This document shows, piece by piece, positions 683 to 40,114 of a DNA stretch of 64,000 nucleotides; within the stretch, counting starts at the first letter, position 1; the number at the start of each line of letters is the position of its first letter. Made by a program: the position numbers and the translations under genes. Source of the stretch: Gammaproteobacteria bacterium (GTDB lineage Bacteria; Pseudomonadota; Gammaproteobacteria; Eutrophobiales; Eutrophobiaceae); assembly GCA_965250225.1 (NCBI GenBank), contig CBDFNQ010000028.1:12438-76437 (forward strand). The letters are read 5' to 3'. The notes beneath the pieces are model-generated. The model was not told the origin of the DNA, made no database searches, and was given only the letters and a program-made list of their open reading frames with translations.

Positions 683-724
683 GTACCCGCATAACAATAC
701 TTGCAACGCTGGCAATTTTAAGCG

Positions 725-1374
725 TTGCCTGATATACAACAACACTTTAAATCGCAGGTTCACTCTGCGATATACCGCATGAAACAAAGACCCGATGCGA
801 AGTCGTTTGGGAGTTATGACGATCTCTCCGCCCACTATGCGCGCGGGAAAGATTACGAGGTTGCGATCGAAACGCGCCCCGATTCTCCAATAGTGGTAAT
901 TGCACCGCATGCGGGAATGATCGAGAATGGCACATCTGAGATTGCACGTGCTATTGTGGAAAATGATTTTAATATCTACCTTTTTGAGGGGGTGGTGAAA
1001 AGCGGAAATTACCGCGCTCTTCATCTCACAAGTCACTATTTCAACGAACCAGATTGCGTCGAGTTCGTTCTTGTCAAACGGTCGTTGTAGTTCATGGTTG
1101 TCGTGGGCGCGCGAAGGAAATTCTTCTTGGTGGTAGGGATTTAGAACTTAAGGAAAAATTCTTCGAGTCATTCACTCGGCATGGAATTGCAGCACGGAAA
1201 GAAGGCCACAATTTTCCCGCGTTTCGGTCAGACAACATTTGCAATCGTGGGGCAGGTGAAAAAGGAGTTCAGTTTGAGTTTACGACGGCGCTTAGAGGCT
1301 CCGAGGCTGAGGGTCCGGTGGTCAAAGCTATCCGAGAAACTCTACTGGCAATTGCAAATCCACCGCTGAGCTAA
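725..1374 (+). pseudogene. Poly-gamma-glutamate hydrolase-like / DUF867 (phage-related YjqB-like) gene, frameshifted
   Basis: ORFs 725-1090 and 1054-1374 are in different frames. Together they give one family-length protein: IAPHAGMIENGTSEIA...LHLTSHYFNEPD // VVVVHGCRG...ILLGGRD...NICNRGAGEKGVQFEF. The frame switch must lie at about 1060-1088. Confidence 0.7.
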
Positions 1375-5202: not shown

Positions 5203-8200
5203 ATGCTTTCAACACTGGTACGTTTTTCCATTAATTACCGTGGTGTGGTGATTACTTGTGCAATACTACTCATGTTTTATAGTGTCTATCGTTTGTCCCG
5301 TGCTGGTCTCGATATCTTTCCTGAATTTTCTCCTAATTTAATCGTTGTGCAAACAGAAGCGCCTGGATATTCAACTGATCAGGTTGAGATACTGGTAACA
5401 CGTCCGATTGAAACGGCATTATCAGGCATGATTGGTATTGACCATGTGCGTTCCGAATCTATTCAGGGTCTATCCATCGTTAATATCTATTTTGAAGAAG
5501 ACACAGACATCTATCGTAATCGGCAACTTGTTTCAGAACGTCTAACGGGTTTATCTGGCTTATTACCAGAAGGCGTCGGACCTGCTGTTCCAGTACCCAT
5601 GGCATCTTCTTCGGCAACTATTCTTACCATGGGCGTAACTTCTAACAGTAAGGATTTGATGGAGTTACGAAGCATTGTTGATTGGAACCTGGTGCCAACT
5701 ATATTGAGCGTACCTGGTGTGGCAGACGTCAACGTGTTTGGTGGTGAGGTAAAACAATTACAAATTCAGATCGATGAAAAAAAACTTGAACAATACAGCC
5801 TTGGCATCAATGAAATTACTGAGGCGGCAAAACAGGCGACCGGAATTTACGGAGCTGGATTCATTGAAAACATCAATCAACGATTAACCCTTAGCTTGAC
5901 TGATTTACCTGAAGATATAAATGAATTGAAAAGGGTTGTTGTCAAACATATCGATGGCGTCAGTATAACATTGGGTGATGTTGCTACGATTGAATATGGT
6001 GCTAAACCTGCGTTTGGTAAAGCGGCGATCCTTGGTGAAGAAGGGGTGGTGTTGATGGTGATTGGTCAATATGGCGCCAATACTCTGAATGTTTCTAATG
6101 CCGTTGAAGAAGCGATTAATGGACTGGATAAAATTTTCGCTGCAAATGAGATCAAACTACATCCAACATTATTTCGGCCAGCTAATTATATAGAACGATC
6201 CGTGTCCAGCATTACCGGACATTTATTCATCGGTGGTCTGTTTGTTATCGCAGTGCTGGTAGTATTCCTGTTTAATTTCAGAACGGCGTTTATTTCGGTG
6301 ATGGCAATCCCCTTATCATTATTAACCGCTGTGTTAGTTTTGTTAGAAATGGGTATTAATCTGAATATTATGGTGATTGGAGGATTGGCGATTGCACTAG
6401 GTGAGGTGGTCGATGATGCAATCATTGATACCGAAAATATTTTCAGACGTTTACGACAAAATAAATTGTTACCAAAGCCTTTGCCGATGAAAGAAGTCGT
6501 CTATAACGCATCAATGGAAGTCAGAGGCTCTGTTGTTTATGCGAGTTTCATTGTGGCTCTGGTGTTTGTGCCATTATTGAATCTAACCGGTATTACTGGC
6601 CGCCTGTTTCAACCGCTGGGCACTGCTTACATATTATCTATTATGATGTCACTGCTGGTTGCGCTTACCGTCACACCAGCACTGTGCTACATACTTTTAG
6701 CCAAAAATAGATTAAGAAATATCGAACCGCCTATTATTAAATTGATACAACCTTACTATGGTAAGGCATTAACACTGATATCGCGTTCGCCCTATTTGGT
6801 ATTCACCGTTACCATTTTATTCTGTCTGGCAGGTCTGTCGGTGTTACCCAATGTTGGCGGTCAATTTATTCCAAATCTGAGAGAAGGCCATTACATAGCA
6901 CATACCTCGAGCATCTCTGGAACCTCATTGAAGGAATCAATACGTGTTGGTAATCAATTAACGAAAACATTTTTAGAAGTACCGGGTGTGGTTTCTGTTT
7001 CTTTCTGGTCTGGCAGGGCAGAACGTGGAGCCGATACCTTTGGTAGTCATTATAGCGAACATGAGATCGATCTTGAAAATACATTAAGTGGTGGTGAACA
7101 ACAGATTGTGCTGGATGAAATTCGTAAAACATTAAATGACTTTCCCGGTTTACGTTTTGAAGTACATAATTTTTTATCTGAACGTATACACGAAACCATC
7201 TCCGGGTATACCACACCGATTGTTGTCAATATATATGGCAAAGATCTCGATGCTATGGATAGAAAGGCAACGGAAGTGGCTGCGTTAATGAAAACCATTG
7301 AAGGTGCAAGTGGTGTTCAGGTGCAGTCATCATCAGCAACACCATTATTGCAAATCGCATTAAAACTGGAAAAATTAAAACAATACGGTCTTGCTCCACT
7401 AGAAATTGTTAATACGATTAAAACGTCGTTTGAAGGTTTGTCGGTAGCGAAAGTTCAGGAAGACAATCGTATCTTTGACGTGTCTGTTATCTTACCAGAG
7501 ATTAAACGTCAGACTCCGGAAGATGTGTTGCAACTACCGATTAAAACGCCTGGCGGCCTGATCCTGCCGTTAAAAGAATTTGCCGACATACGTCAACAGA
7601 GCGGTCGTTATAATATTTTGCATCAGGATGGGCAACGACTGCAGAGTATCACCAGTAATGTGGTTGGTCGTGACATTGTCGGATTTATGAATGAACTGGA
7701 AGAGACCGTATTGGCTAAAGTGCAATTCAGTGCAGAGCTTTATCCTGAGTTCACGGGTGCAGCGATTGAACAGGCAAAGGCAAAAGAGGAATTAATCATT
7801 CTTTCTTCTCTGGTTATGGCTGTCGTTTTAATGCTTATATACATTGCAACCGGAAGTTTTAGAAATGTGATGTTAATGCTTGTGAATTTACCGTTTGCAT
7901 TGGTCGGTGGTGTTATTGCTGTCTTGCTTACGGGTAGTAATTTATCAGTGGGTTCTCTGGTCGGTTTTGTCACACTCTTTGGAATCACGATACGCAATTC
8001 AATTATGCTGGTTTCCCATTATCAATATCTGGTGGAGGAGGAAGGTCTTCCATGGAATCTGGATGTAGCCATTCAGGGAGCGCAGGAACGCCTGCCTTCA
8101 ATATTGATGACTGCGTTAGTCACAGCATTAGCTATGTTACCAATCGCTATAGGTAGTGATAACCCAGGTCGTGAAATCATGGGGCCGATGGCAGCCATCA

Positions 8201-8295
8201 TTGTCGGTGGTCTAGCTTCTTCGACCATATTAAATCTGCTGATCATGCCTTCCATGATGTTAAATTTCGGTTTTTTTGCAGAAACCAATGACTAA
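5203..8295 (+). CDS. RND efflux transporter permease (1030 aa)
   Basis: 12-TM RND architecture. Motif GLAIALGEVVDDAIIDTENIFRRL. Two large periplasmic loops. Confidence 0.9.
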   Translation: MLSTLVRFSINYRGVVITCAILLMFYSVYRLSRAGLDIFPEFSPNLIVVQTEAPGYSTDQVEILVTRPIETALSGMIGIDHVRSESIQGLSIVNIYFEEDTDIYRNRQLVSERLTGLSGLLPEGVGPAVPVPMASSSATILTMGVTSNSKDLMELRSIVDWNLVPTILSVPGVADVNVFGGEVKQLQIQIDEKKLEQYSLGINEITEAAKQATGIYGAGFIENINQRLTLSLTDLPEDINELKRVVVKHIDGVSITLGDVATIEYGAKPAFGKAAILGEEGVVLMVIGQYGANTLNVSNAVEEAINGLDKIFAANEIKLHPTLFRPANYIERSVSSITGHLFIGGLFVIAVLVVFLFNFRTAFISVMAIPLSLLTAVLVLLEMGINLNIMVIGGLAIALGEVVDDAIIDTENIFRRLRQNKLLPKPLPMKEVVYNASMEVRGSVVYASFIVALVFVPLLNLTGITGRLFQPLGTAYILSIMMSLLVALTVTPALCYILLAKNRLRNIEPPIIKLIQPYYGKALTLISRSPYLVFTVTILFCLAGLSVLPNVGGQFIPNLREGHYIAHTSSISGTSLKESIRVGNQLTKTFLEVPGVVSVSFWSGRAERGADTFGSHYSEHEIDLENTLSGGEQQIVLDEIRKTLNDFPGLRFEVHNFLSERIHETISGYTTPIVVNIYGKDLDAMDRKATEVAALMKTIEGASGVQVQSSSATPLLQIALKLEKLKQYGLAPLEIVNTIKTSFEGLSVAKVQEDNRIFDVSVILPEIKRQTPEDVLQLPIKTPGGLILPLKEFADIRQQSGRYNILHQDGQRLQSITSNVVGRDIVGFMNELEETVLAKVQFSAELYPEFTGAAIEQAKAKEELIILSSLVMAVVLMLIYIATGSFRNVMLMLVNLPFALVGGVIAVLLTGSNLSVGSLVGFVTLFGITIRNSIMLVSHYQYLVEEEGLPWNLDVAIQGAQERLPSILMTALVTALAMLPIAIGSDNPGREIMGPMAAIIVGGLASSTILNLLIMPSMMLNFGFFAETND

Positions 8296-12529: not shown

Positions 12530-13750
12530 TCAGGAATCCTGGGTAATTTTGTTTTTATCTTTTAATTGCTGTAGCCACCACCTTGCATGTTCTCTGGTTT
12601 TTTTGTAAGACAACGCTTTTGTGAATGAATCCCTGGACAATTCCTGATCATTTAATTCATAAAAAGCAATACCTGTTAACAACAGAGCCTGTGCTGTTTG
12701 TTCTTTATTATCATGCGATATTACTTGCGATAAATGTTCAATAGCCTTTTCCCATTGGCTTGATTCATAATAAAGTTGTCCCAGACGGAAAAATAATTCC
12801 GGGTCTCGATCTGTTTCAGTGATTTTCTCAAGTGCAGAGATGGCTTTTGTTTTTTCATGAGCAAGCATCCAGCTATTGGCAAGGAGTTCAAGATTCGATT
12901 TGGATGTTGTCAATTTGCCTTTTTGAATTTCTTTTTCTAACAACATCGCCGCCTTAATGGGTATATCAAGATAAAGATACGTATTGGCAAGACTGATAAT
13001 TTGTTGCTTGTCAAGAAATCCTTTTTTATAGGCAAGTTCATTTATAGCCAAAGATCTTTTATCTTGTTTGGCTAACTGGTACGCTGCCATCAGTTGCATC
13101 CAGTTTTGTTTTTTTGTCGGTTCCAGACGTACTAGTTTTTCAAATATGTTTGCTGCATTGCTGTATTGTTTAGTTTGAATATAGGCGGAAGCCAGTAATT
13201 CGTACCAATTCATTGGTACTTTATTTGTTTTTGATATGGCATTGTTCAAATGCGGTATCATTTTATTGTAGTCATTTAGATGATAAAAAATAGTTGCAGC
13301 AAGGAGGTGTGCATCGGCATTTGGATCTGGTTCATACTCAAGCCATTTTTCCAGATATTTCAAGGCTTCTTTATAAGATTCGTCGAAAGCTAAAAGACGT
13401 GCGATATTCAATTCAAGTTCATGCTGAATGTTTTTCGGAAGTTTGTTAATTTCTGCAGCATTTATAAAAGCTTGTCTGGCATTTTTTGTATCATTGGTCT
13501 GGTAATAAGCATGTCCAAGCATCTGATAGGTGACGGCCAGGTCATACGGTTTATCCTGAATTTGTTTTAATAAGATTTTTAATATTTTAATGGCGTCACG
13601 AGGCTGGTCATTTGTCATCAATTGTTGGGATTCATTGATGATCTGATAGCTTGATTCAGATAATGTTTGTTCCTGCCCAGCTGCATTGATTTCAATGCTA
13701 AACAATGAATGAGAAACAAATAAGACAGAAATGATGAATGTAATTTTCAT
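12530..13750 (-). CDS. Tetratricopeptide-repeat protein, last gene of the TonB2-type operon (TtpD-like)
   Basis: Signal peptide and many TPR-like helical pairs. Sits directly downstream of tonB, as in Vibrio TonB2 clusters. Confidence 0.65.
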   Translation of the reverse strand: MKITFIISVLFVSHSLFSIEINAAGQEQTLSESSYQIINESQQLMTNDQPRDAIKILKILLKQIQDKPYDLAVTYQMLGHAYYQTNDTKNARQAFINAAEINKLPKNIQHELELNIARLLAFDESYKEALKYLEKWLEYEPDPNADAHLLAATIFYHLNDYNKMIPHLNNAISKTNKVPMNWYELLASAYIQTKQYSNAANIFEKLVRLEPTKKQNWMQLMAAYQLAKQDKRSLAINELAYKKGFLDKQQIISLANTYLYLDIPIKAAMLLEKEIQKGKLTTSKSNLELLANSWMLAHEKTKAISALEKITETDRDPELFFRLGQLYYESSQWEKAIEHLSQVISHDNKEQTAQALLLTGIAFYELNDQELSRDSFTKALSYKKTREHARWWLQQLKDKNKITQDS

Positions 13751-14441
13751 TGTTAAATATTATTTTAATTTGAAAATTTACAGTTTGTCTGGTACGAACT
13801 TCTCTAGCTTCGCCATTTTCGATCTCAGGATTAAATTGCCATTTGGTAATGACTTTTAATACCGCGCGATCAAACATTTCTGGTGGATCGGATTTGACTA
13901 TGACAGGGTCTTTAACAGTACCGTCTTTTGTAATGGTAAGTTCAACGATAACCACACCTTCTATGCCAGAACGTAAGGCACGTCTGGGATAGGCTGGAGG
14001 GATCTTAATCGTTGGTATTAAGTTAGTTAGCACCTCTGGTTTTGATAGTGGTTGTGCAGCTGTAGGTTTCGTAGATTTAATAAAATCTCCTATGAATGGT
14101 GTGCCATTAATGTTCATAGGTATATCCAGGCCTGGCATGCTGATCTCAAGTGGGGTTACATCAGGTTTGCTGATGTCAGGTTGAATCATATCCGGTGGAG
14201 GAGGTGCTTCATCGGGTGGAGGTGGTTCTTCAACTTCTTCTTGGATAATTTTATCAGGTGATTCCATCTGTTCTTTGAAGCGAATGAAATCGACAAAATT
14301 AATAGCTTCAATGATTGGTGGGCGAAATTGTTCATTGGTGACTAATTGCATAATAAAATAAAAAATTAGAAAATTAGCGACCAGGGCGCAAGCTACGAAA
14401 GCAGGTAGTCGCGGAACTCTTTCTGTCATGTCCTTTAACAT
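13698..14441 (-). CDS. tonB: Energy transducer TonB
   Basis: N-terminal anchor, Pro-rich spacer EEPPPPDEAPPPPD, and C-terminal TonB domain (YPRRALRSGIEGVVIVELTI...). The 3' tail overlaps the next gene by 53 nt and may be read-through (see findings). Confidence 0.8.
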   Translation of the reverse strand: MLKDMTERVPRLPAFVACALVANFLIFYFIMQLVTNEQFRPPIIEAINFVDFIRFKEQMESPDKIIQEEVEEPPPPDEAPPPPDMIQPDISKPDVTPLEISMPGLDIPMNINGTPFIGDFIKSTKPTAAQPLSKPEVLTNLIPTIKIPPAYPRRALRSGIEGVVIVELTITKDGTVKDPVIVKSDPPEMFDRAVLKVITKWQFNPEIENGEAREVRTRQTVNFQIKIIFNNENYIHHFCLICFSFIV

Positions 14442-14859
14442 TGCGTAATGTTTATTCTTTTTTTTGCTGCGATTGAGACGTTACTGACACCTGCAAGTCG
14501 AACCTGATCGAGCACATCAACGGTAATACCAGTATCGGCTTTTTTTATCCGCCATAATGATAACCGTGCCTTCCGGGTTTTTGTGCCGTTAGGCGTTCTA
14601 TATGTGCGCGAATGGAACGTAACTCAACTTGTCTGTTATCGATCCAGACTTCACCGACTTCGTTTATACCAATGATTAACGTTCCCTGTTCCTGCCGTAC
14701 AGCCGTTTGTGCGGAAGGCCGGTTGACTTCAATGCCGGACTCTTTGGTAAATGAAGCGGTGACCAGAAAAAAGATCAACAGGATGAAGACCATGTCTATC
14801 AATGGTGTTAAATTAATATTTGAGCTAACGTTATCTTCTGTTGTATGACGATTTCGCAT
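14435..14859 (-). pseudogene. exbD: ExbD biopolymer transport protein with two frameshifts
   Basis: Frame a gives MRNR...NLTPLIDMVFILLIFF...ERLTAQ. Frame b gives NPEGTVIIMADKK. Frame c gives ADTGITVDVLDQVRLAGVSNVSIAAKK. The switches sit at the T5 run 14578-14582 and the T7 run 14541-14547. Confidence 0.75.
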
Positions 14860-14868
14860 AGGTGTTTA

Positions 14869-15382
14869 TCAGTGAGTTAATAAATCTCTGGTTTCATCCA
14901 GCTGGATTTGCGCGCGACGTTTCAGGTCAGTGCTAAAATACAAGCCTACTATTGATGTAACCAGGCCGGCTGTGGTTGGTAATAATGCCTGTGAGATGCC
15001 ATCTGCTATGCCACGGGCGTTACCCGTACCAAAGACATTGATCACTTCAAAGATTGCGATCATTCCGGTGACGGTGCCGAGCAGGCCGAGCAATGGTAAT
15101 ACAGCAATTAATGCGTTGATAGGGATCATGTTGTGTTTTGTATTCATACTGATGTCAGCAAGAAATCCTTCGCGAAGTTTCATTGAATGCCAGGAAATTT
15201 TATTAGTACGTTGTTCCCAACGACGAATGATCACGTCCAGTTGTTTTTTGTAGCCGTAAATAAAAAAAAAAGTAGCGTTCAATGATTAAGATCCAGAGTA
15301 AAATTGAGGTGAATAAAATGACTATCAGGACAGTGCCTCCCTGATCAAAAAAATCTCTGAAGTTGTTTATCCAATCAAGCAT
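14869..15382 (-). pseudogene. exbB: ExbB (MotA/TolQ/ExbB proton channel) with one frameshift
   Basis: From ATG 15382: MLDWINNFRDFFDQGGTVLIVILFTSILLWILIIERYFFF. This continues in the next frame as IYGYKKQLD...PLLGLLGTVTGMI... The switch sits at the 10-nt A run 15262-15271 (T10 in the gene sense). Confidence 0.75.
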
Positions 15383-16689
15383 TAGACTGTTTTCTACGGT
15401 TCGTTTCTGCTAACTGGGCGATAAAACCTTTGCTTTTTTCATCAAGGATCTGGATCACATTATTGCTTTTGCTCGATACAAAACTGTGTAATAGTAATAA
15501 TGGAATAGCAACGACCAATCCCATGACAGTTGTCACCAGGGCTTGGGAAATGCCACTGGACATAGTTCGAGGATCACCCGTTCCAAACAAGGTGATTGAT
15601 TGAAATGTTTCAATAATCCCCGTGACGGTACCCAACAAGCCAAGCAGCGGGGCTATGGCTGCCAGTAATGACAGGATGCTCATACCGCGTTGTAATGCGG
15701 GCAATTCTTTTAGAATTGCTTCATCCATTTTGAATTCCAGTGTTTCAGTATCGATGTCCGGGTTCTTGACATAGACTTCCATGATTCGACCGAGGGGGTT
15801 ATTGTCTGGTGTTTTATGACTGAGTTGAGTTTGTACTTTTTTTATTTGTCTGAGTCAGTCTGAGTAGCCGGATGATTGCTATCAACAAACCAACAATGCC
15901 AACAACAATAATAATATAACCTATCAATCCTCCCTGTTCGATGCGCTCAAAGATGTTGGGTTCTTGCACTAACAACGCCAGCATCTCGCCACGTGTGGGA
16001 TCGAGTGCAATCGGGTATAGGTCAGAAGGTTGCCCAGCAGATAATTTTTCATGCTTTGCATTTTCAAGATCGCTGGCCATAGTCTGAAATCTTGCTGTGG
16101 GTTGTCGTCCCGGTTCCACTAGTTTGCCAGTCTCAGGTAGAAAACGTAGATAATGACCGTTTGAGTAGGTATTAAAAACACCCACACGCGTTACTGATTG
16201 TTCAACCTCTTCGCCAGTATTAAGGATAATATTTGCCGGGAAGCTGACAACCTTTGCAGATTCTGCCATTTCATCCAGCACCAATAGCCACAGATCTTCC
16301 AGTTCCTTGATCGACGGTAATTCCTTGCTACCAGCTAATTTATCTATCCCTTCATCTCTACCGGGTTTTTGTGCAGTGACGATCGATGTATCAATAATGC
16401 TATCAACTTCATTGGCAATTTGACGTACGACACCATGCAATTCATCGAGTGAACCAATTCGTTGTTTTAAAATATTCTCCTGGGTTTTTATCGCGACTTC
16501 GTTTTCATCATAGCGGGATCGTAATCGTTTGCTACGAGCTTCTTCATTGACATATTTTGTTTTTGCTTCATTCAAAACTACAGATTGTTTATCTTTGGCA
16601 GATTTGAATGTTTCAACACGTTGTAGTAATTCCTTTTTTTCCAGCAGGCGTTCTTTTTTAACTTGCTTAACCAATTCATCAAGACTCAT
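15375..16689 (-). pseudogene. ttpC: TtpC-like large MotA/TolQ/ExbB family protein with one frameshift
   Basis: The 291-aa N-terminal ORF (coiled coil plus first TM) and the 135-aa C-terminal ORF (PLLGLLGTVTGIIETF...GDP) are two halves of one gene. The conserved NPLGRI motif lies in the downstream frame just before its ATG. The switch sits at the T7 run 15837-15843. Confidence 0.7.
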
Positions 16690-16758
16690 TGCATTGTCTT
16701 GAGAAAATAAGGGTTGTGATAAAATTAATGCGAAAACAAGGTGTGAGTGTACGCAGGA

Positions 16759-17532
16759 TCATTGTATTTTCTCCGGCGCTTTGACAGGAATTCTAAACAG
16801 ATCAGGCGGTGCCTGGTTGCGTGCTATCTTAAGACCTTTCTGCACACCACTATGATAGGACTTATCAAGTGCAGCCCATCTTTTCTCCCCTGCATGCCAT
16901 TGACCAATGGCCTTCTTATCCAGGGTGGAATAGATCAATGTTAATCGGCCTATACGTAATATATCAACGGTTTGTGATTTATCGTTAATGAGGATCGTAT
17001 CTTCATAGGCCTCAATCGTTCGGCCATATTCCATCTCAATTTGATAGGCCTCCATGACACGACGAAACTTATCGGGCAGTGTCACGTCAGGTCTGTCCAT
17101 CATTTCTTTAATAAGTAGCAGACGCTCCTGTCTCTCTTTTGTTAAAAAAGGAAAATCAAGAGAAATAAATACCTCCAGAACTTCAATCATTCGTAGCATC
17201 AACGGCACAATGTCCCGTTGCGTACTTTCGATATACCCCATTTGTCTTTCTATCGAGATCAATGAGTTTTGTTGGTTCTCGATCAGAACTTCAAGTTGAT
17301 TGTTATAACGGGTTAAACTGTCAGTCGAATGCAGAAGTGTTTTGTATTCTTGCTGCATATCACGAGTGTTATTTGCAAGAGAGTCGATTGTTTGCTGGGT
17401 TTGAATATTATTTTTCTGTGATTCCAGCGTGTTATCAACCGCTGATTTCAACGCATCATCTGCGGTCACAACGAAACTGAAAAATATCAACGAGATAATG
17501 ACTAGAGTCGAAATAACAGGTTTGTATATCAT
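16759..17532 (-). CDS. DUF3450-type periplasmic coiled-coil protein, first gene of the TonB2 operon (TtpB-like)
   Basis: Signal peptide and coiled-coil N-terminal half. Sits upstream of ttpC as in Vibrio TonB2 clusters. Confidence 0.6.
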   Translation of the reverse strand: MIYKPVISTLVIISLIFFSFVVTADDALKSAVDNTLESQKNNIQTQQTIDSLANNTRDMQQEYKTLLHSTDSLTRYNNQLEVLIENQQNSLISIERQMGYIESTQRDIVPLMLRMIEVLEVFISLDFPFLTKERQERLLLIKEMMDRPDVTLPDKFRRVMEAYQIEMEYGRTIEAYEDTILINDKSQTVDILRIGRLTLIYSTLDKKAIGQWHAGEKRWAALDKSYHSGVQKGLKIARNQAPPDLFRIPVKAPEKIQ

Positions 17533-17717
17533 TGGTAATCCTTGATCAATTTACAGTAAAACGGTTTTAGTATCCTTGAATGAGTGTATGGAAATTATCG
17601 GGAAATTTGACCGGGAGTTTTTCCTGAATATTGCACACACTCTTAAATTGTGTGTTCAAGTCGAATTATAATCTACAGCAACAATCAGAATAACTAGAAA
17701 ACTTTGTGGAGAAATTA

Positions 17718-20136
17718 ATGTTGGTATTGGATTGTCTCGGTAGAAAACGGTTGTTGTTTGCTATTTTGTTCTTTCAAAGTGCAAAACATTATTGCTCAAA
17801 CAGATGGTTTGGCAGATGGTCTGGCAGATAGCCAGACAGACGAACTTGAGGATGTAACGGTGATTGGAGTCACACCGACCCATGGGGTAGGCCTGCCTGA
17901 AAATCAAATTCCTTTTAATGTGCAATCTGCCACCAGTGCTGATCTGGAAGAATCTCAAAGTTTCGATCTGACCGATTACATCAATCGTAATCTGGGAAGC
18001 GTGACGCTGAATGATGCCCAGAACAATCCATTGCAATCAGATGTTCAATATAGAGGTTTCACACTCTCTCCCTTATTAGGTTTGCCACAGGGTTTATCCG
18101 TATTTCAAAACGGTGTGCGTATCAATGAACCTTTCGGTGACTCAATAAACTTTGATCTGCTGCCTGAATCTTCCATCGGCAGTATTAATCTGGTCGGTGG
18201 TGCGAATCCCTTATTTGGTTTGAATACCCTTGGTGGTGCGTTAACTGTGAGAACCAAAAATGGTTTTACACATGAAGGACACAGTCTTGAAACCTATGGT
18301 GGTTCGTTTGGACGTTTTGTGACCACTGTTGAAAGTGGCGCGAATAATGGACAGTGGGGTTATTTCGTTACGGGAAATTATTTTGACGAGGATGGTTGGC
18401 GTGACGCGTCTGAATCCGATGCTCTGAATTTTTTCAGTACTGTGGGATACCGTGATCAGGACACAACCCTGGATATTGGCATTAATCATGGCGATACCGA
18501 TCTGGTTGGAAATGGATCAACCCCTGTCGAGCTTGAAGCCCTGGATAGAGAAGCCGTATTTACCTCTCCTGATCAGACAAAAAATAATTTGACGATGGTG
18601 ATAGCCGAAGGGACGCATTGGTTAAATGAGTCAACCCAGTTATCGGGCAATGTTTTTTATCGTAATAATGAAACAGACTCTTTCAATGGTGATGGCACTG
18701 AATATGAGGACTGTGCATTAAACGGCGGCCCTGCTGGTTTTTTGTGTGAAGAAGGCGACACTGTCCCGATCGATGATCAAAACGGCAATACGGTTGCTGT
18801 AGTAAATGCGAATGGCACAGAAAGAAATGCTCTGAATAATATTAGTGATCGTGAACAGGAAGGATTTGGTGGTTCTTTGCAATCAACTTTTCTCAGTGAT
18901 TTATTTGGTAGAGAAAATCAATTTATTATTGGTAGTGCCTATCAACAAGGGCTGATTGATTTTACCTCTATTGTTGAAGTGGCGACCTTAGTCTGTGAAT
19001 TTAATGGTGATGATTGCACCTTGCCTGGAGCTGATCGCAGTACAGTAGCCTCTGGTTTGTTTATCCCTGAAGAGGGCACAAAGATAAAGGCACATAATCG
19101 TACATGGTCAATTTATCTAACGGACACAATTTCAGTGACCGATCAACTTAATCTCACTTTGTCTGGACGTTATAATAATTCACATATTGTTTTAGGTGAC
19201 CGCAGCAATCAGAATACTTTAGTTGAACCGAGTAGTCCCCAAGATTTGAATGGTGAACATGATTTCCAACGTTTTAACCCGGCAGTGGGTTTGACCTACA
19301 CTTTCTTGGGTGGCACGAATGTGTTCGGTAGTTACAGTGAATCTTCACGTGCACCGACACCTATTGAATTACTCTGTGCGGATGAGAGTGCTCCCTGTAC
19401 CTTGCCAAACGCATTCCTTGCTGATCCACCATTGGAACAAGTTGTCACTAAAAGTTTTGAAGGAGGTTTCCGTGGCGTGTTCAATGATATTGATTACTCT
19501 ATAGCCGGTTTTCACAGTACCAATACTGACGATATTATTTTTACCAGCACCGGTGGCATAGGTTCGAATGAAGGCTTTTTTAGAAATGTGGGCGACACAC
19601 AACGGGTCGGTGTTGAATTAGGGCTGTCGGGAGAAATTAACAGGCTGAACTGGTTTATGAATTACAGCTTTGTGGGTGCAACATTTGAAACAGCATTCCA
19701 GGCTGCCAGTGCCAATCATCCGTTGGCAGATGCCAATGGTGAAATTGCAGTGCAAGCTGGCGATAATATTCCTGGTGTTCCACAACATTCATTAAAGCTA
19801 GGTGGATTATTTAGCGTGACCAATCAATTAGATATTGGGGCGAACATGCTCTTTAATTCTGAACAATACATTAGAGGTGATGAAGCAAATTTACTGGATG
19901 CGATAGATAGTTACGTTGTTGTTAGCCTGAATGGAACATACAAAGTGAATAGTCGTTTCACTGTATTTGCTCGGATTAATAATTTATTCGATACCGATTA
20001 TGAAACGTTTGGATTGCTTGGTGAGCCTGGTGAAGTATTTGATGGCTCGGGCGCAACACCTGCCTTTACTAACCCACGTTTTATTGGTGTCGGTGCACCT
20101 ATCTCCGGTTTTGTTGGGATCAAAATTTTACTCTAA
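17718..20136 (+). CDS. TonB-dependent outer-membrane receptor. The 5' end is probably frameshifted.
   Basis: Plug region (DVTVIG, FDLTDYINR, RGF...VFQNGVRINEPFGD) and a long beta-barrel. A good RBS (GGAG) and ATG at 17718 encode a signal-peptide-like MLVLDCLGRKRLLFAILFFQSA in the frame one base off from the main ORF (17758 onward). Confidence 0.8.
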
Positions 20137-20263: not shown

Positions 20264-21637
20264 ATGAGTTTTTATATGAGCCTACGATTACGATTAAGTT
20301 TGTTAATCACATTGGTATTTTTACTAATACTGGTAGCAACGGGCTATGTAGTAATAGAAAATGCACGCCGGGCAATCGAAGATGAAATTCATTCCAGTGC
20401 GCAACTGACATTACAGTTGATTGAAATTGCATTTGCTAGTGTTGAGGAAAAACAGGCGGATAAAAAAATCAGTTTGGTTGAGGAAATCTCAGAACTGGAA
20501 AGCTCACGACATTTAACGATTGATCTGATCCGTCATAGCAACTCACGCCATGCGCCATTTTTTCCTGAACGAGCCATTTTAGCAGATGCACCAGACTGGT
20601 TTGTGCAACGAGTAAAACCCGTTCCTATTGAATTTAGAAGAACATTGCCCACACCGAATCTACCCATAGAACTGGTTATCAAGGCAAACCCTTCGGATGA
20701 AATTACCGAGGCCTGGAATGAAACAAAAGGGGTGCTCATTTTGTTAACCTTATTTGTGTTAATTGCCATAACATTGGTTTATTACACATTAGGTCGCGGC
20801 CTGAAACCGATCGATAATATCCTACATGCCCTGGAAGAGATAGAACAAGGTAACTATCAATTGCGTCTACCAGATTTTAATTTACCTGAATTAAGCAAGA
20901 TATCTCAAAAATTTAATCATATGGCTGCGGTCATGCAAAAAAGCCGTGATGAAAATCGTGCCCTGACTCAACGATCTTTAGCTATTCAGGAACAGGAAAG
21001 GCAAGATTTGGCCTATGCTTTACACGATGAACTGGGGCAATCGATCACTGCAGTGAAAGCTGTTGCAGCATCAATTAAATCGCAGGATCAGTCGGTGACT
21101 GAAATCAACAAGAGTGTGGATGCGATCATTGATGTATCCGATCAAATGTATGATGTTGCGCGTACTATGATACAGCGTTTGCGACCATCCGTGTTAGATG
21201 AACTGGGAATTGTTCGGGCATTACAGGAAATGATTGATGACTGGAATGTTCATCATGGTGATCTGTTTTGTCATTTTAATTTTTTCGGTCAGTTAGATAA
21301 ACTTGGTGATACCATAAATATTATGCTTTACAGAATTGTGCAGGAAAGTTTGACGAATGTGGCAAAGCATGCAGAAGCAGATAGTGTTCATATAAATATA
21401 CATCGAACTCTGGATATTAAAACTAATAATGATTCTCAAAGTAAAGAAACCGGGGCAGGAGAGATCACATTATTCATTGAAGACAATGGTATTGGTTTTG
21501 ACACAAACAAAACATCACAGGGTCTGGGTTTATTAGGGATGAGAGAGCGCGTGGAATCATTAGGTGGTGAAATCTCCATAGATAGTTCTGAAGACAATGG
21601 TGTGGAAATCAAAGTGACAATTCCTTGTGAACAATAA
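20264..21637 (+). CDS. Sensor histidine kinase (TM-HAMP-HisKA_3-HATPase, NarX/UhpB type)
   Basis: Two TM segments, a HAMP-like linker, H-box HDELGQSITAVK, and ATPase motifs (NVAKHA, DNGIGF, GLGLLGMRER). Confidence 0.8.
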   Translation: MSFYMSLRLRLSLLITLVFLLILVATGYVVIENARRAIEDEIHSSAQLTLQLIEIAFASVEEKQADKKISLVEEISELESSRHLTIDLIRHSNSRHAPFFPERAILADAPDWFVQRVKPVPIEFRRTLPTPNLPIELVIKANPSDEITEAWNETKGVLILLTLFVLIAITLVYYTLGRGLKPIDNILHALEEIEQGNYQLRLPDFNLPELSKISQKFNHMAAVMQKSRDENRALTQRSLAIQEQERQDLAYALHDELGQSITAVKAVAASIKSQDQSVTEINKSVDAIIDVSDQMYDVARTMIQRLRPSVLDELGIVRALQEMIDDWNVHHGDLFCHFNFFGQLDKLGDTINIMLYRIVQESLTNVAKHAEADSVHINIHRTLDIKTNNDSQSKETGAGEITLFIEDNGIGFDTNKTSQGLGLLGMRERVESLGGEISIDSSEDNGVEIKVTIPCEQ

Positions 21638-21666
21638 TGAAATATTATTATGAATAGAGTTATCTC

Positions 21667-22317
21667 ATGAATAAAGAAATGGAAAAAATAAAAGTATTAC
21701 TAGTGGATGATCACGCGGTTGTCAGAGCTGGTTACGAAATGTTGTTAAAAAATTCCACTGACATAGAAGTGTTGGTACAAGCGGAAAGTGGTGAGCAGGC
21801 GATCAAGGCTTATATCGAACACCAACCTGATGTCATCGTTATGGATCTGTCTTTACCTGGTATCGGTGGACTTGAAGCGATCCGTCGCATTATAGCGCGT
21901 GACTCTACGGCCAGGATTTTAGTCTTCAGTATGCATGATGATACGATATTTGTTGAACAAGCTTTGCAGGCAGGTGCCAAAGGTTATATCCCTAAAAGCA
22001 GTTCGCCGGATGCACTGGCGGATGGAATTCGAGCAATCTATAAAGGCGAAACATACGTTGATGCAAATATTGCTGAACGTATTGCTAGCAGTAAAGTTAG
22101 AGGTGAAAACACACCATTCAGTAATCTATCAACACGCGAGTTTGAGATATTTTGTTTGCTTGCAAAAGGACTTAACACCAGTGAGATAGCCAAGTGTTTA
22201 TCAATCAGCTATAAAACCGTTGCAAACTACAGCACACAGATAAAAAATAAATTAGACGTGTCTACCGTTGCGGAGTTAGCACGTATGGCGATTCGATATA
22301 AAATTATAGATGCCTGA
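21667..22317 (+). CDS. NarL/LuxR-family response regulator (AgmR/ErbR-like by context)
   Basis: REC (LLVDDHAVVR...VIVMDLSLPG) plus a LuxR HTH (LSTREFEIFCLLAKGLNTSEIAKCLSISYKTV). Confidence 0.85.
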   Translation: MNKEMEKIKVLLVDDHAVVRAGYEMLLKNSTDIEVLVQAESGEQAIKAYIEHQPDVIVMDLSLPGIGGLEAIRRIIARDSTARILVFSMHDDTIFVEQALQAGAKGYIPKSSSPDALADGIRAIYKGETYVDANIAERIASSKVRGENTPFSNLSTREFEIFCLLAKGLNTSEIAKCLSISYKTVANYSTQIKNKLDVSTVAELARMAIRYKIIDA

Positions 22318-22583: not shown

Positions 22584-23540
22584 TTAATCGTCAATAACAA
22601 CACCCCAGGGGAAACTTCCAACTTCGATCGTTTTGATGTTGCTATTGGTGGCAGTATCAATCATTGAAACTGTACCGCTTACGCCATCTGTTGTGAAAAT
22701 GTGAGAACCATCTTTACTCATGGCAAGTCCCCAGATACGTTTGCCAACCGGAATGGTGCTGATTACTTCCATACTATCGGCATCCATGACAATAACCTGG
22801 TTCGCACGACCACCCGCAACATAAAGTGTTTTTTCGTCTTTACTCAATAACACATCTTTGGGTTTGGCCTTTTCGTCACCAATAGAACCCACCGCTAATA
22901 CCTTATAGGTTTCCATATCTACCTTTTTAACTTCACCACTGATCTCCGAAGTGGAGTATGCGATATTTCCCGCTTTGGTAAAGGTGACTGCTCGTGGTCG
23001 AGCACCGACCAGAATATTTCCAACGATCTTGTGCGATGGCACCTCGATCACATGCAACATGTTGGTGGATTCACTGGTGACAATAACTTTGGTTCCGTCT
23101 GGTGAGACAGCAACGCCTTCTGGTTCAAGCCCCACCTTGATTTCCGCCAACAGTTCACCGGTTTTAGGATTATAGACAGTCGCCTTGGCATCATCTTCAT
23201 TTGAAATATAAATATTTCCATTGGGGTGTACAGCAAAGGTCTCCGGATCAGAACCAGATTCAAATTTGCGTAATATTTCGAGGGTTTCAGGATCAACCAC
23301 AGCAATGGAATTTTCTTCACTGACGGCAACGTACAATTCCGAACCATCCGGCGCTAATCCAATGCCGCGTGGCCGATCACCAATATCGATCGTTGCTTCG
23401 ACTTGGAATGTTTCGCCATTAATGACACTGACTGTATCCGACTTTTCATTGGTTACGAAAATACGGCCAGTCGGTTCCGCCTGGATATTAGTGATACTCA
23501 GGCCTAAGGCAAGGGCCGCAGTCATCATGTGTTGTTTCAT
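22584..23540 (-). CDS. YVTN-type beta-propeller repeat protein (PQQ-dependent catabolism-associated type)
   Basis: Signal peptide. Repeated units IFVTNEKSDTVSVI / LYVAVSEENSIAVVD / IYISNEDDAKATVY / VIVTSESTNMLHVI. Confidence 0.6.
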   Translation of the reverse strand: MKQHMMTAALALGLSITNIQAEPTGRIFVTNEKSDTVSVINGETFQVEATIDIGDRPRGIGLAPDGSELYVAVSEENSIAVVDPETLEILRKFESGSDPETFAVHPNGNIYISNEDDAKATVYNPKTGELLAEIKVGLEPEGVAVSPDGTKVIVTSESTNMLHVIEVPSHKIVGNILVGARPRAVTFTKAGNIAYSTSEISGEVKKVDMETYKVLAVGSIGDEKAKPKDVLLSKDEKTLYVAGGRANQVIVMDADSMEVISTIPVGKRIWGLAMSKDGSHIFTTDGVSGTVSMIDTATNSNIKTIEVGSFPWGVVIDD

Positions 23541-23572: not shown

Positions 23573-24391
23573 TTACTTTAAGCAATCTGTTAGTCCCAGA
23601 CTTTCTACCGTGGGTGGCTTTGCGATTCCGCGTACTGGTGCCTCGGCGATTGTTTTACCATTTTCAACAATGAGTACTGGTTGTCTCAGCTGGCCGGTAT
23701 TACGAAAATCCATATTGATACCTTTCTGACCATCAAAGCTAAGATTTGTTTTTAGAAACTCTAACATGTCTCCTGCATTGGTCAGATTTTCACGCGCCAC
23801 GGTGTCTGAAACCATTTTTATCGCAGCCCAGCCAGCCCATGCCTCATCATTCATTTCTGACTTCTGGGCTTTCTTGAAGCGTTTGTTTAAATCACGTGCG
23901 GCAAACTTTACAAAATCTACATTCCAGGCTTGGGCGCTGGCATTAGAATCTGGCTTTTTTTGTTGCCACTGAGCCAGTGCATCGGCTTTCATCTGGGCAC
24001 TGGGAAGAATATGCAGTTGGTTCGCACTGCAGCCAATGCGTAGATCGTCGTCATCAAGCGTGATATTCAGGATTGCCGTGTTCGGCATTTTGCTGCCAAT
24101 GGTTTCCAGCGAGTTTTTATTGCCCGCGGCAATCACCGCTATGACAGAACTGGGGATAGCATTATCAAGATCACCAACATTGCCTACAAGGACATCGTAA
24201 TGTTGGCCGAGGAACTGTCCTTGTAGATTCGCCTCACTGAGTCCTTGCTGAACACCCTGGTAGGCGGAACCGTTTGTATCACCTATGTACAAAAACGTGA
24301 CATCGATGTTTTCAGCATAACTCATTGAATTAGATAGAAATAAAAGACTGATAGCCAGTGTTTTTATTGTATGTTTCCCGACTTGTTTCAT
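23573..24391 (-). CDS. Periplasmic substrate-binding-like protein (LivJ-like fold, PQQ-alcohol-dehydrogenase-system type by context)
   Basis: Signal peptide. The N-terminal pattern VTFLYIGD...AYQGVQQGLSEANLQG resembles branched-chain type binding proteins. At 272 aa it is shorter than I would expect. Confidence 0.4.
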   Translation of the reverse strand: MKQVGKHTIKTLAISLLFLSNSMSYAENIDVTFLYIGDTNGSAYQGVQQGLSEANLQGQFLGQHYDVLVGNVGDLDNAIPSSVIAVIAAGNKNSLETIGSKMPNTAILNITLDDDDLRIGCSANQLHILPSAQMKADALAQWQQKKPDSNASAQAWNVDFVKFAARDLNKRFKKAQKSEMNDEAWAGWAAIKMVSDTVARENLTNAGDMLEFLKTNLSFDGQKGINMDFRNTGQLRQPVLIVENGKTIAEAPVRGIAKPPTVESLGLTDCLK

Positions 24392-26568: not shown

Positions 26569-26603
26569 AGCTATAAATTTAACAGTGTTAGAGATCAGTA
26601 GAG

Positions 26604-26849
26604 ATGAAAACATTGGGTGCCCGAGAAGCAAAAGAAAACTTTGGTAGTCTTATAGACACGGTCCAACGTGAACCTGTGACTATCCTGAAAAACGGACGTC
26701 CTTCTGCGGTCGTCGTCTCACCAGAAGATTATGCTCGAATGGGAGGCAGTCGTCAGCGTATTATGGACTTGCAGAAACAAATAGCGGAGCAAGCAGAAGG
26801 CAGTGGATTAACGGCAGACATTTTAGCTGCCATAGTGAATGAGCGATAA
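26604..26849 (+). CDS. Phd/YefM-family antitoxin
   Basis: MKTLGAREAKENFGSLIDTVQREPVTILKNGRPSAVVVSPEDY. 11-nt overlap with the PIN gene. Confidence 0.75.
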   Translation: MKTLGAREAKENFGSLIDTVQREPVTILKNGRPSAVVVSPEDYARMGGSRQRIMDLQKQIAEQAEGSGLTADILAAIVNER

Positions 26850-27258
26850 ACCTCGCATCATCATTGATACCAATATCCTGATTAGTAGTATGGCATTTAT
26901 GGAGAGCGTCCCACAACAGGCTGTAAACAGGGCTCTGGAATTAGGTGTATTACTTTTTACACTGGCTACTTTGGAGGAATTTAAAGAGGTTATATTACGT
27001 CCAAAGTTCGACAAATATATTGAGCGTGATCTTCGAATAGCCTATTTTTTTGAAATTTCCACCTCATCCTTGATGGTGAAACCTAAAGCCTGTTCACACG
27101 TTTGCCGTGACTTAAATGATCAAAAATTTCTGGAAGCATATCAAGGTGGAGAGGCCGAGTATTTGATTAGTGGTGATCAGGATTTATTGATTTTGAAAAA
27201 TGACGCGTTACAAGTGTTAAGTCTCGATGAGTTTTTATCCGTGGTTAAAGAGAGATGA
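26839..27258 (+). CDS. PIN-domain toxin
   Basis: IIIDTNILISS at the N-terminus, ...DQKFLEAY...YLISGDQDLL. Paired with an upstream antitoxin. Confidence 0.75.
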   Translation: MSDKPRIIIDTNILISSMAFMESVPQQAVNRALELGVLLFTLATLEEFKEVILRPKFDKYIERDLRIAYFFEISTSSLMVKPKACSHVCRDLNDQKFLEAYQGGEAEYLISGDQDLLILKNDALQVLSLDEFLSVVKER

Positions 27259-30444: not shown

Positions 30445-30522
30445 GTTATAAATATTCTTGCCTATTTTATACAAATTGACTACAGTTAATGTCATCTTAT
30501 TACAATGTAATTCAATTTAATT

Positions 30523-30744
30523 ATGACACAAATTACTGCCAGGCTACCTGAAGAATTAATGCAATCACTTGATGCCGTAGTGCTCGCAAGTGGGCGTCCA
30601 CGATCTGAATTGATCCGTAAAGCGATCGAAGCTTACGTGGAAGATTACAAGGATCTGTCTTTGGCATTGGATCGACTCAGAGATCCATCTGATCCTGTTT
30701 TAGATTGGGAAGACGTAAAACGTGAATTACTTGCTGAAAATTAA
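30523..30744 (+). CDS. Ribbon-helix-helix (CopG/RelB-type) antitoxin
   Basis: ITARLPEELMQSLDAVV...RSELIRKAIEAYVED. Overlaps the toxin gene. Confidence 0.7.
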   Translation: MTQITARLPEELMQSLDAVVLASGRPRSELIRKAIEAYVEDYKDLSLALDRLRDPSDPVLDWEDVKRELLAEN

Positions 30745-30979
30745 AGCCAGTGCAAAGAAATCTCTTCAAAAAATAGATAAACAAGATCGTACTCGTTTGA
30801 TCAAGGCGATTGATGAACTTCTTGAACATCCGTATAAAGGTAGTCAGTTGAAAGGTGAACTGACTGGTCTAAGAAGAATTAGAGTCGGTCCATATCGAAT
30901 TATCTATGAAATACAAAAACACGAACTGATAATACTTGTCCTTAGAGTAGGGTATCGTAAAGAAATTTATCGATTTTAA
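30722..30979 (+). CDS. RelE/ParE-family toxin
   Basis: KASAKKSLQKIDKQDRTRLIKAIDEL...LRRIRVGPYRIIYEIQKHELIILVLRVGYRKEIY. Confidence 0.75.
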   Translation: MNYLLKIKASAKKSLQKIDKQDRTRLIKAIDELLEHPYKGSQLKGELTGLRRIRVGPYRIIYEIQKHELIILVLRVGYRKEIYRF

Positions 30980-30989
30980 ATTAAAAGTT

Positions 30990-32150
30990 TTAAATTATTT
31001 CTTCTGAAGCTATTTTTTTCGAGTTCTTCATGTTCCTGAATAGGACCGGTTTCTCCTCAAGTTCAGGTGTGCCGGCAATTCTGCCAATACCATCTACGGT
31101 ATCAACCAATTCCTGATGGTGAGGTGATTTACTACAGACTGGGTCGGCATTGGTTGCATCACCTGTGAGCATAAAAGCCTGACATCGACAGCCACCTAAA
31201 TCCTTTTCTTTTTCGGGGCAAGTCCTGCAAGGTTCTTTCATCCATTTCAGACCACGAAATTTATTGAAGTCAGGTGATTCATTCCATATCCAGTCAATAC
31301 TATGATCCTGTACGCTGGGCAATTCCAGTCCGGGTAATTGACGGGCAGCATGACAAGGCAGGGCGAGACCATCAGGCGTGATAGTAAGAAAAATAGCTCC
31401 CCATCCATCCATACATTTTTTCGGTCTGTCTTCAAAGTAGTCAGGAATGACATAATAAATCTTCATTTTGCCCTTTAGTTTTTCCTGATATTCTTTTGCC
31501 ACCGTTTCGGCATTTGCTAACTGTTCTCGAGTAGGGATGAGATAGTTTTTGTTATGAAAGGCCCAACCATAATACTGTGTCGTTGCTAACTCAACGTAGT
31601 CCGCATCAAGTGATACGGCAAGATCCAGAATTTCTTTCACATAAGGTTCATTCTGACGATGTAAAACAAAACAGAGTACCATGGGGTAACCATGTTTTTT
31701 GACGGCTCGGGCCATTTCCAGTTTGTGTTCGAAGGCATCCGTTCCCGCAATAAAATTATTCAGATCGGCACTACTGGCCTGGAAACTAACCTGTATATGA
31801 TCAAGTCCTGCTTCTTTGAATGCCTTGACTCTTTTTTCGTCCATGCCAATACCTGAGGTAATCAGGTTTGTGTAGAAGCCCAGTTGTCTCGCTTCAGCGA
31901 TTAACTCTTCCAGGTCGGGACGTGTTAGAGGCTCACCACCGGAAAATCCCAACTGCGTTGAGCCCATCTTGCGGGCTTCACGCATAACCCGTATCCAGTC
32001 TTCGGTGCTGAGCTCATTTTTATATTTTGCCATGTCCACAGGGTTAGAGCAGTAAGGGCACTGCAGTGGACAAGCATAAGTGAGTTCTGCCAGTAGCCAG
32101 AGTGGAGGATTTATTTTATTTGTATTGGACCCAGCCGTTTTCATGGGCAA
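30990..32150 (-). CDS. pqqE: PQQ biosynthesis radical SAM protein PqqE
   Basis: [19 protein letters not shown] (CxxxCxxC), SPASM-like C-terminal cysteines. Gene order pqqBCDE. Confidence 0.9.
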
Positions 32151-32409
32151 CCTCCAGGAATTTTTTTACATCATTATCAAGTTCAGTATCAGGATATTGT
32201 TTCTGCAATTGTCTGATAATTGCAGTGACATTATTTTTTCCATCGCATAATTTTAAAATTTCTGCTGAGCTTTGTCCCAGCTTCACCATGCCTTCCGGAT
32301 ACAATACGACGTGGCAATCCTGTACTTCTTCCCATTGGAGTCGATGTGTTGAAGCTATTTCCGGAACGACATCTAGTGTCAATTTTTCATTTACATCATC
32401 ATTCAGCAT
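32116..32409 (-). CDS. pqqD: PQQ biosynthesis peptide chaperone PqqD
   Basis: [36 protein letters not shown]. Overlaps pqqE. Confidence 0.85.
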
Positions 32410-32422
32410 CTTATTTTCTTAC

Positions 32423-33154: not shown

Positions 33155-33174
33155 ATTTCTATTTCTCCGACTAA

Positions 33175-39828: not shown

Positions 39829-40114
39829 ACAAATTATTTGGCCATTGAATAGAACTATGAATTACACGTAATAAATATACCGTTTCACCGATGATTTGAT
39901 AGGGAATGATATAAGGTATATCGGTAATGATTAACTCTCGTGTTTTAGGATGGCGACCCGGTCTACCAATTGCCGGGTGTTTGGATAATTGTGTTTCAGC
40001 AGAATTGATGATTTTTAATATCGTTGTTATTGCGGCCCTGGGATTATCTTCTCTTATATATTCTTCAATATGATTTAAGTCCTGGTTGGCTTTCTCAGTC
40101 CATTGAACGCGCAA
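39827..40114 (-). CDS. ParE/RelE-family toxin
   Basis: VQWTEKANQDLNHIEEYIREDNPRAA...PGRHPKTRELIITDIPYIIPYQIIGETVYLLRVIHS. Confidence 0.75.
   Translation of the reverse strand: MRVQWTEKANQDLNHIEEYIREDNPRAAITTILKIINSAETQLSKHPAIGRPGRHPKTRELIITDIPYIIPYQIIGETVYLLRVIHSSIQWPNNL

Follow-up and report, generated by a model that had tools for sequence, protein, structure and literature searches.

Has the TonB2-type energy-transduction locus in this stretch of DNA decayed, or is the sequence itself at fault? The window, as we call the whole 64-kb stretch analysed here (contig CBDFNQ010000028.1, positions 12,438 to 76,437), carries on its minus strand, at 17532-12530, six genes in the order ttpB-ttpC-exbB-exbD-tonB-ttpD. 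The sequence marks this locus as a TonB2-type energy-transduction operon of the ordinary kind, accompanied by a divergent TonB-dependent receptor. Eight frameshifts break five of its genes; every one consists of a single extra base, and all of them lie within 13763-17786. We favour, with modest confidence, local sequencing or consensus errors as the source of these eight bases.

The genes were identified by Pfam domains and by tblastn with the proteins of a related locus (L001), and the domains, together with the gene order in relatives, uphold the names given to them in the initial annotation of this DNA. Listed in the order of the operon and then outward on the divergent side, with lengths in amino acids (aa), the features are as follows.

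16759-17532, minus strand: ttpB, the first operon gene, intact, 257 aa (DUF3450, PF11932, E = 1.8e-78, full length)
15375-16762, minus strand: ttpC, in two pieces, a 291-aa N-terminal piece (15814-16689) without a start-linked signal peptide and a 135-aa piece with the MotA_ExbB domain (15375-15782)
14869-15382, minus strand: exbB, in two parts, a head of 59 aa (15203-15382) and a body of 137 aa (14869-15282), to which the MotA_ExbB domain is confined (Pfam)
14435-14859, minus strand: exbD, spread over three successive frames, with a called product of only 104 aa, a stump (14545-14859) that covers no more than positions 6-90 of the 128 of the ExbD domain (Pfam)
13698-14441, minus strand: tonB as read, 247 aa with a TonB_C domain, a 21-aa tail and a 53-nt overlap with ttpD
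12530-13750, minus strand: gene of a ttpD-like TPR protein, the last operon gene, intact, 406 aa (Pfam TPR families)
17533-17717: divergent intergenic region between ttpB and the receptor gene
17718-20136, plus strand: TonB-dependent receptor with plug and barrel domains (17758-20136), divergent from the operon
20264-22317, plus strand: MoxY/LapD-N-type histidine kinase (457 aa) and LuxR-type response regulator (216 aa)

Four related loci, L001, L055, L056 and L057, served for comparison. L001 is the best result of a scan of species-representative genomes that depends on shared 8-mers and returned only distant loci (<=55%); its identity is 55% over the N-terminal TtpC fragment used as the query. 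A protein search with TtpC repaired by removal of its extra bases returned closer relatives, at 64-71% identity, and is the source of the other three. Overall, repaired TtpC is 60-71% identical to its relatives. Among the findings that, according to the initial annotation, would overturn it were the same split open reading frames (ORFs) in relatives; instead, every gene of the operon is a single, intact ORF in all four, with lengths of 255-261 aa for ttpB, 445-452 for ttpC, 170-171 for exbB, 134 for exbD, 232-235 for tonB and 405-411 for ttpD, and the window's ttpD product aligns with those of the relatives from end to end. The MoxY/LapD-N-type kinase and the LuxR-type regulator stand directly beside ttpB in all four relatives. 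The receptor gene, in contrast, occupies the position between ttpB and the kinase in the window only.

No second assembly of the same species was found in the collections, either by contig searches with ttpB and the called TtpC fragment or by protein look-ups, and an exact look-up of repaired ExbB, ExbD and TonB in the protein collection gave no match. The window proteins tested are all singleton clusters from one contig of 154,218 bp, among them the 291-aa TtpC fragment, which the search with repaired TtpC also returned. Searches with TtpC, the receptor and LigA returned nothing above 73% identity. This lineage has otherwise not been sampled; the closest LigA is 68% identical and the closest TtpC 71%.

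Traced with the L001 proteins in tblastn, TtpC passes from frame -2 to -3 at ~15838-15842, ExbB from frame -1 to -2 at 15245-15270, and ExbD from -2 through -3 to -1, at 14575-14582 and 14538-14545. Codon-level comparison with the relatives then fixed the exact sites.

16733-16757, minus strand: site 1, at the start of ttpC; the extra base may belong to the sense run TTTT (16733-16736) or to CC (16740-16741)
15837-15843, minus strand: site 2, in ttpC; sense A7 (AAT AAA AAA plus one base)
15262-15271, minus strand: site 3, in exbB at codons 38-40; sense T10, the longest homopolymer in the 64-kb window
14578-14582, minus strand: site 4, in exbD; sense A5, where relatives have CAA AAY (A4)
14540-14546, minus strand: site 5, in exbD; sense A7 (GAT AAA AAA plus one base)
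14458-14465, minus strand: site 6, in exbD; sense A8
13763-13766, minus strand: site 7, in tonB; sense AAAA
17783-17786, plus strand: site 8, in the receptor gene; AAAA

At site 1, the overlap of the ttpB stop with the ttpC start (ATGA, with the ATG at 16762-16760) is conserved, and a hydrophobic signal segment is found only in the next frame. Repair there gives MILRTLT(L/PCF)..ALILSQPLFSQDNA, which resembles the signal peptides of the relatives. The repaired junction at site 2 reads ...VQTQLSHKTPDNN..., and site 3, once repaired, reads TTT TTT TTT (FFF) where the relatives have W(F/Y)(F/Y) with neither a long run nor a frameshift. At site 6, repair produces the ending ...SIAAKKE with a stop at 14452-14454, the same ending as in L055 and L056. 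Taking one base out of site 7 ends TonB at ...VNFQIK, whereas as read it runs on into ttpD; TonB in the relatives ends in ...NF(T/N/K)LK(N/K/E), 1-6 nt short of ttpD.

In the receptor gene, frame 0 holds a ribosome-binding site, the ATG at 17718 and the n- and h-regions of a signal peptide ('RKRLLFAILFFQSA'), and frame +1 holds 'NIIAQTDG...', the plug and the barrel. The gene as called starts at GTG 17779 and encodes 785 aa without a signal peptide. Another start in the barrel frame was considered and rejected, as the only candidates are TTG 17758 and GTG 17779, neither of which is followed by a signal peptide. Joined together, the two frames align with the signal peptides of related receptors (P0129-P0135), for example with 'KSTFIFAIALFTGTNANAQ' of P0129, whose signal peptide 'FIFAIALFTGTNANAQ' pairs with 'LLFAILFFQSA' in frame 0 and then with 'NIIAQ' in frame 1. 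Because of this alignment we place the shift at AAAA 17783-17786, where the removal of one base gives ...LLFAILFFQSANIIAQTDG...

With one base removed per site, the products measure 461 aa for TtpC (two bases), 170 for ExbB, 134 for ExbD, 226 for TonB and 805 for the receptor, and they contain junction peptides such as ERYFFFIYGYK, TQTNKKVQTQLSHK and AQNPEGTVIIMADKKADTGITVDVLDQVR. As read, no ttpC product is the single polypeptide of ~450 aa with a signal peptide and a C-terminal MotA/TolQ/ExbB domain that typifies TonB2-type systems; the removal of two bases yields one. ExbB, ExbD and TonB as read are likewise not intact (split, truncated to 104 aa and carrying a 21-aa foreign tail, respectively), and after repair they match those of the relatives. 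The tblastn alignments, the codon comparison, the repairs and the signal-peptide alignment bear out all seven sites that the initial annotation had proposed (one in ttpC, one in exbB, three in exbD, one in tonB and one in the receptor gene), with two corrections of detail: the second exbD run lies at 14540-14546 rather than 14541-14547, and the ttpC join is sound but its junction residue is H rather than I. The eighth frameshift, in the signal-peptide region of ttpC, was not part of that annotation, nor were the common sign of the eight and the two frameshifts of opposite sign found elsewhere in the window.

These two came from a window-wide scan for ORFs that a single-base edit would fuse, in which non-coding gaps were also inspected and suspicious ORFs were screened against NCBIfam (20 ORFs only); for genes without a family model, length was judged against relatives only where synteny allowed. 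Both of the frameshifted genes outside the locus lack one base in a short A run.

53691-54592, minus strand: gluQRS (tRNA glutamyl-Q34 synthetase), read as ORFs of 174 and 132 aa, with the break near 54095-54105
722-1371, plus strand: DUF867-like gene (poly-gamma-glutamate hydrolase family, assigned by eye from motifs), with the break near 1065-1085

The missing base in gluQRS is probably an A4 that became A3 in 'TCAAAGC', and the halves of the gene score 193 and 149 bits against the family model. Other merges from the homopolymer-edit scan were discarded as mostly natural gene overlaps, for example pqqD/pqqE. An apparent transposase frameshift at 43.7 kb proved instead to be a complete IS4-like gene inserted in an integrase remnant. 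In the long genes (metH, smc, ligA and the gene of a resistance-nodulation-division (RND) permease) and at all other runs of 7-8 nt, the sequence is in frame. The claim that the frameshifts are not spread evenly is therefore borne out, with eight of the ten in the window falling inside 6% of its length (P ~1e-8). A search for DNA repeats found no copy of the affected zone elsewhere in the window that could explain a mis-assembly.

If the extra bases are real, the TonB2 module and its receptor may have gone out of use recently, with a first frameshift that killed the operon and a remainder that drifted, collecting later single-base insertions in A/T runs, possibly in an insertion-biased lineage defective in mismatch repair (MMR). 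We consider such an inactivation possible but rather doubtful. In V. vulnificus, all six TonB2 proteins have been shown genetically to be required for function (PMC6957404). The frameshifts of the cluster are limited to one functional unit, and no unrelated neighbour is hit. Long essential genes and the other long runs are intact, which is expected under selection and not under random error. The window further holds other broken genes and mobile debris (gluQRS, the DUF867-like gene, an IS4-like transposase in an IS3/IS481-type remnant, and IS110 and RAYT fragments), and MMR-deficient strains of P. aeruginosa and P. fluorescens are on record as biased towards insertions (PMC4702332, PMC4316635).

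The sign of the events fits this account poorly. All eight are insertions, which has P = 0.004 without any bias. Indels in wild-type Vibrio are deletion-biased 2-3x and mostly multi-nucleotide (PMC5854121), and under that bias the probability of eight insertions in eight falls to between 1.5e-4 and 1.5e-5. The two frameshifts outside the locus are opposite in sign, and a genome-wide insertion bias is thus not evident.

Run length fits it poorly as well. Counted by original run length, the hits number 3 of 98 runs of 3 nt, 1 of 43 of 4 nt, 0 of 8 of 5 nt, 2 of 8 of 6 nt, 1 of 3 of 7 nt and 1 of 1 of 9 nt; half of them are in runs that were originally 3-4 nt long, and several runs of 6-7 nt in the affected stretch are untouched. 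In MMR-deficient yeast, the rate in A/T runs rises from 9.7e-10 (n = 3) to 1.3e-5 (n = 8), i.e., ~6.7-fold per nucleotide (PMC3755907). At that slope 0.19 hits would be expected in runs of up to 4 nt, compared with the four observed (P = 5e-5), and even a slope of 4-fold per nucleotide gives P = 0.01 (0.2-0.8 hits expected in these runs across the slopes). In MMR-deficient P. aeruginosa, every indel fell within a run, and these runs were 6 nt long on average (PMC4702332). The run-length dependence at this locus is far too shallow for replication slippage, and the spectrum that slippage produces, with a steep dependence on run length and both signs, is not what is seen. A repair deficiency could explain the sign but is contradicted by the run lengths, whereas a wild-type regime tolerates hits in short runs but is contradicted by the sign and the uniform 1-nt size.

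The repaired genes also lack the marks that usually accompany disruptions in pseudogenes (nonsense codons, deletions, faster protein evolution), and protein lengths are preserved. There is no nonsense codon in the 1,800 codons of the repaired frames; 2.4-4.2% of substitutions would make one, and 0.6-4 would be expected depending on the indel-to-substitution ratio, so that P(0) ranges from 0.54 to 0.02. Relative to the flanking kinase and regulator genes, no rate acceleration is detected against the outgroup L001. At columns conserved to at least 95%, TtpC departs 8 times compared with 3-7 times in its nearest relatives, and the receptor 4 times compared with a mean of 2.6; there is no clear excess. 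All of these decay tests are blind to divergence below ~1%.

Two further observations argue against inactivation. The hits span 4.0 contiguous kb out of a module of 7.6 kb and spare ttpD along with 2.3 kb of the barrel of the receptor, a pattern that has P ~0.05 if the module decayed uniformly. Moreover, the window contains an intact gene for a BtuB-like TonB-dependent receptor (663 aa, 49841-51832), preceded by an intact cobalamin riboswitch (49479-49714, plus strand). Because this receptor still depends on TonB energy, its presence shows that TonB-dependent uptake has not been abandoned and that the organism needs a working TonB system; other such systems may lie outside the window. The cobalamin riboswitch shares its intergenic region, back to back, with an S-adenosylhomocysteine (SAH) riboswitch (49314-49397, minus strand) upstream of metH.

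Local sequence errors therefore remain our preferred explanation. The eight extra bases would most likely be insertion miscalls in A/T runs, not present in the DNA of the organism, left behind in a poorly covered stretch of ~4 kb, be it one of very low coverage, one resting on a single lower-quality read or one that was left unpolished. Elsewhere the contig is clean, and on this account the true genes would be intact and the system functional. Homopolymer indel errors in draft assemblies are known from pyrosequencing and from long-read consensus, and they are usually spread assembly-wide. The window resembles such cases in that single-base run-length errors split conserved genes that show no other defects, with a moderate rise with run length. 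It differs from them in having eight such errors in 4 kb and two in the other 60 kb, and a local drop in coverage or quality must therefore be assumed. The single-base frameshifts in gluQRS and the DUF867-like gene, both otherwise well conserved, are consistent with an assembly that contains indel errors. Local miscalls were one of three explanations that the initial annotation had listed without ranking; we place them first and real decay second, whereas a switch or rescue by slippage, the third, is essentially excluded for the cluster as a whole.

Several points weigh against sequence errors. The technical origin is inferred from the pattern of the hits and not seen in reads; what is observed are the positions, the sign, the intact orthologues and the lack of other signs of decay, and every window protein is a singleton from one contig. 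The other 60 kb is clean in its long genes and in its runs of 7-8 nt, which excludes a general platform problem, and a special local cause must thus be assumed for the artefact. The affected stretch lies wholly inside one functional module, as a selective loss would look, and the window has other decay-like features in the two outlying frameshifts and in the insertion sequence (IS) and RAYT fragments. With respect to sign, the 3.3-fold insertion bias of MMR-deficient P. aeruginosa (PMC4702332) raises the probability of eight insertions in eight to 0.12. Finally, indels outnumber substitutions in MMR-deficient yeast (PMC3755907), and the argument from the absence of nonsense codons is weakened accordingly.

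A real local burst of +1 insertions is also conceivable, in which one error-prone synthesis episode over ~4 kb, for instance when a low-fidelity polymerase filled a gap or repaired a break, introduced all of the bases. The eight bases would then be real and would have arisen together, by a mutagenesis that is insertion-only and insensitive to run length, and the TonB2 module and receptor would be lost from an otherwise intact genome. This would explain at once the contiguity, the single sign, the weak run-length dependence and the lack of substitutional decay. However, a poor read predicts the same data, we did not find a bacterial process on record that produces +1 insertions alone, at ~2 per kb across 4 kb, and the assumption is ad hoc; we judge the burst very improbable.

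We think it just as improbable that the T10 tract in exbB, with a true length of 9 or 10, varies within the population or is corrected at the RNA level by slippage, giving on/off or partial expression. In insect endosymbionts, frameshifts in poly(A) tracts are rescued by transcriptional slippage, and slippage on A/T tracts of 9-10 nt is documented in endosymbionts. Phase-variable (contingency) genes for TonB-dependent receptors are found in Neisseria and Haemophilus. The contingency-locus concept in general is discussed in PMC4702332 and PMC5854121. The window shares with the endosymbionts the A/T runs, one tract being of 10 nt, and with the contingency genes a receptor gene whose frameshift lies in the signal-peptide region, as well as a long 5' tract in a gene for energy transduction. 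The exbB tract lies near the 5' end of its gene, and runs of such length are highly unstable in MMR-deficient cells (PMC4702332).

Only this one site is explained, however. An A/T tract of at least ~9 nt is present at one of the eight frameshifts, and the other seven are too short for transcriptional slippage, among them runs of 4, 4, 4 and 5 nt, at which no slipping occurs; each operon transcript would have to be corrected independently at seven places, and next to no product would result. A long tract (at least ~7 nt) near the 5' end is found only in exbB. The other tracts are 4-8 nt long, often near 3' ends and up to three per gene, and the run in the receptor gene has just 4 nt. The relatives retain none of the frameshifts, all four being in frame at every site. 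Unlike those of the endosymbionts, the genome is not reduced and not AT-extreme, with a GC content of ~40%, IS elements and toxin-antitoxin pairs. Least probable is that ribosomes undergo programmed +1 frameshifting here, or that the genes are naturally split and their pieces act as separate subunits. The common +1 sign speaks for this, but against it stand the single ORFs at every site in all four relatives, the lack of a motif common to the sites and, as read, pieces without start codons, signal peptides or essential domains.

If intact, TtpB, TtpC, ExbB, ExbD, TonB and TtpD would form, by analogy with their families, an inner-membrane complex driven by the proton-motive force, and this complex would supply the energy for uptake through TonB-dependent receptors, the adjacent one of 805 aa presumably among them. 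The Vibrio TonB2 operon has the same six genes in identical order (ttpB2-ttpC2-exbB2-exbD2-tonB2-ttpD2; PMC6957404). The likeness extends to the proteins, with a DUF3450 TtpB of 257 aa, a TtpC of ~450 aa with a C-terminal MotA/TolQ/ExbB domain and a TPR-containing TtpD of 406 aa in the window; TtpB and TtpD have the lengths typical of such systems, ~255-260 and ~405-425 aa, respectively. The two systems differ in the five genes that are frameshifted as read, in the lack of a Fur box above background upstream and in the MoxY-type kinase and LuxR-type regulator that the operon adjoins in this lineage. Versions of the operon in Vibrionaceae and Alteromonadaceae are distant from that of the window (36-39% for TtpC). 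In the Vibrio TonB3-type arrangement a receptor gene heads the operon (PMC6957404). Here, too, the receptor stands directly beside ttpB, but it is transcribed divergently and is absent from this position in the four relatives.

In the intergenic region 17533-17717, the best match to a Fur box agrees at 11 of 19 positions; in stretches of equal size this is the most frequent best score, and the match is no better than background. Iron control of the operon is thus not supported, and the adjacent kinase/regulator pair may be involved in its regulation instead. Genes of the pyrroloquinoline quinone (PQQ) system are close by, namely a beta-propeller gene at 22584-23540 and pqqB/C/D/E at 30990-34089. 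Together with the constant presence of the kinase and regulator beside the operon, this hints that the system may have a purpose other than the uptake of iron.

Elsewhere in the window, the 272-aa ORF at 23573-24391 (minus strand) matches only positions 222-331 of the 347 of a model for the ATP-binding cassette (ABC) substrate-binding protein of the PQQ-dehydrogenase system, and the 700 nt upstream of it are non-coding; it may be a truncated gene. The RND permease at 5203-8295 (plus strand) is 88.5% identical to its L057 version and ~60% identical to those of L055 and L056. The genes around it are 52-66% identical to L057, and the jump in identity may reflect transfer or replacement by a paralogue. 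Three toxin-antitoxin pairs, assigned by eye from their translations, appear to be intact. These pairs, the mobile-element remnants and the tandem repeats are listed below.

26592-27258: toxin-antitoxin pair, Phd/YefM-like with a downstream 139-aa ORF
30511-30976: toxin-antitoxin pair, RelB/RelE-like
39830-40379: toxin-antitoxin pair, RHH/ParE-like
40724-40872: tandem array of a 13-nt unit (CTCTTGATTTCTG), 11.8 copies, in a gene-poor region between the ParE/RHH pair and the transposase fragments
41130-41321 and 3-191: fragments of RAYT-like (REP-associated tyrosine transposase) genes, an N-terminal and a C-terminal part, respectively
41359-41724: fragment of an IS110-family transposase, covering the first 84 of 343 profile positions
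43703-44902, minus strand: IS4-like transposase, 399 aa, nested in a C-terminal remnant of an IS3/IS481-type integrase (43417-43797)
177-258: perfect tandem duplication of a 41-nt unit

Whichever explanation holds for the TonB2 locus, it illustrates how miscalls and gene decay can be told apart without recourse to reads, by the sign of the frameshifts, by how strongly they depend on run length and by the absence of substitutional decay. If the extra bases are real, the locus would record the very recent loss of one TonB-dependent uptake system, a common event of modest interest. If they are technical, the contig has a poor stretch of ~4 kb in which a normal TonB2-type system has five genes mis-called as fragments and its receptor called without a signal peptide, and counts of pseudogenes for this lineage would be inflated.

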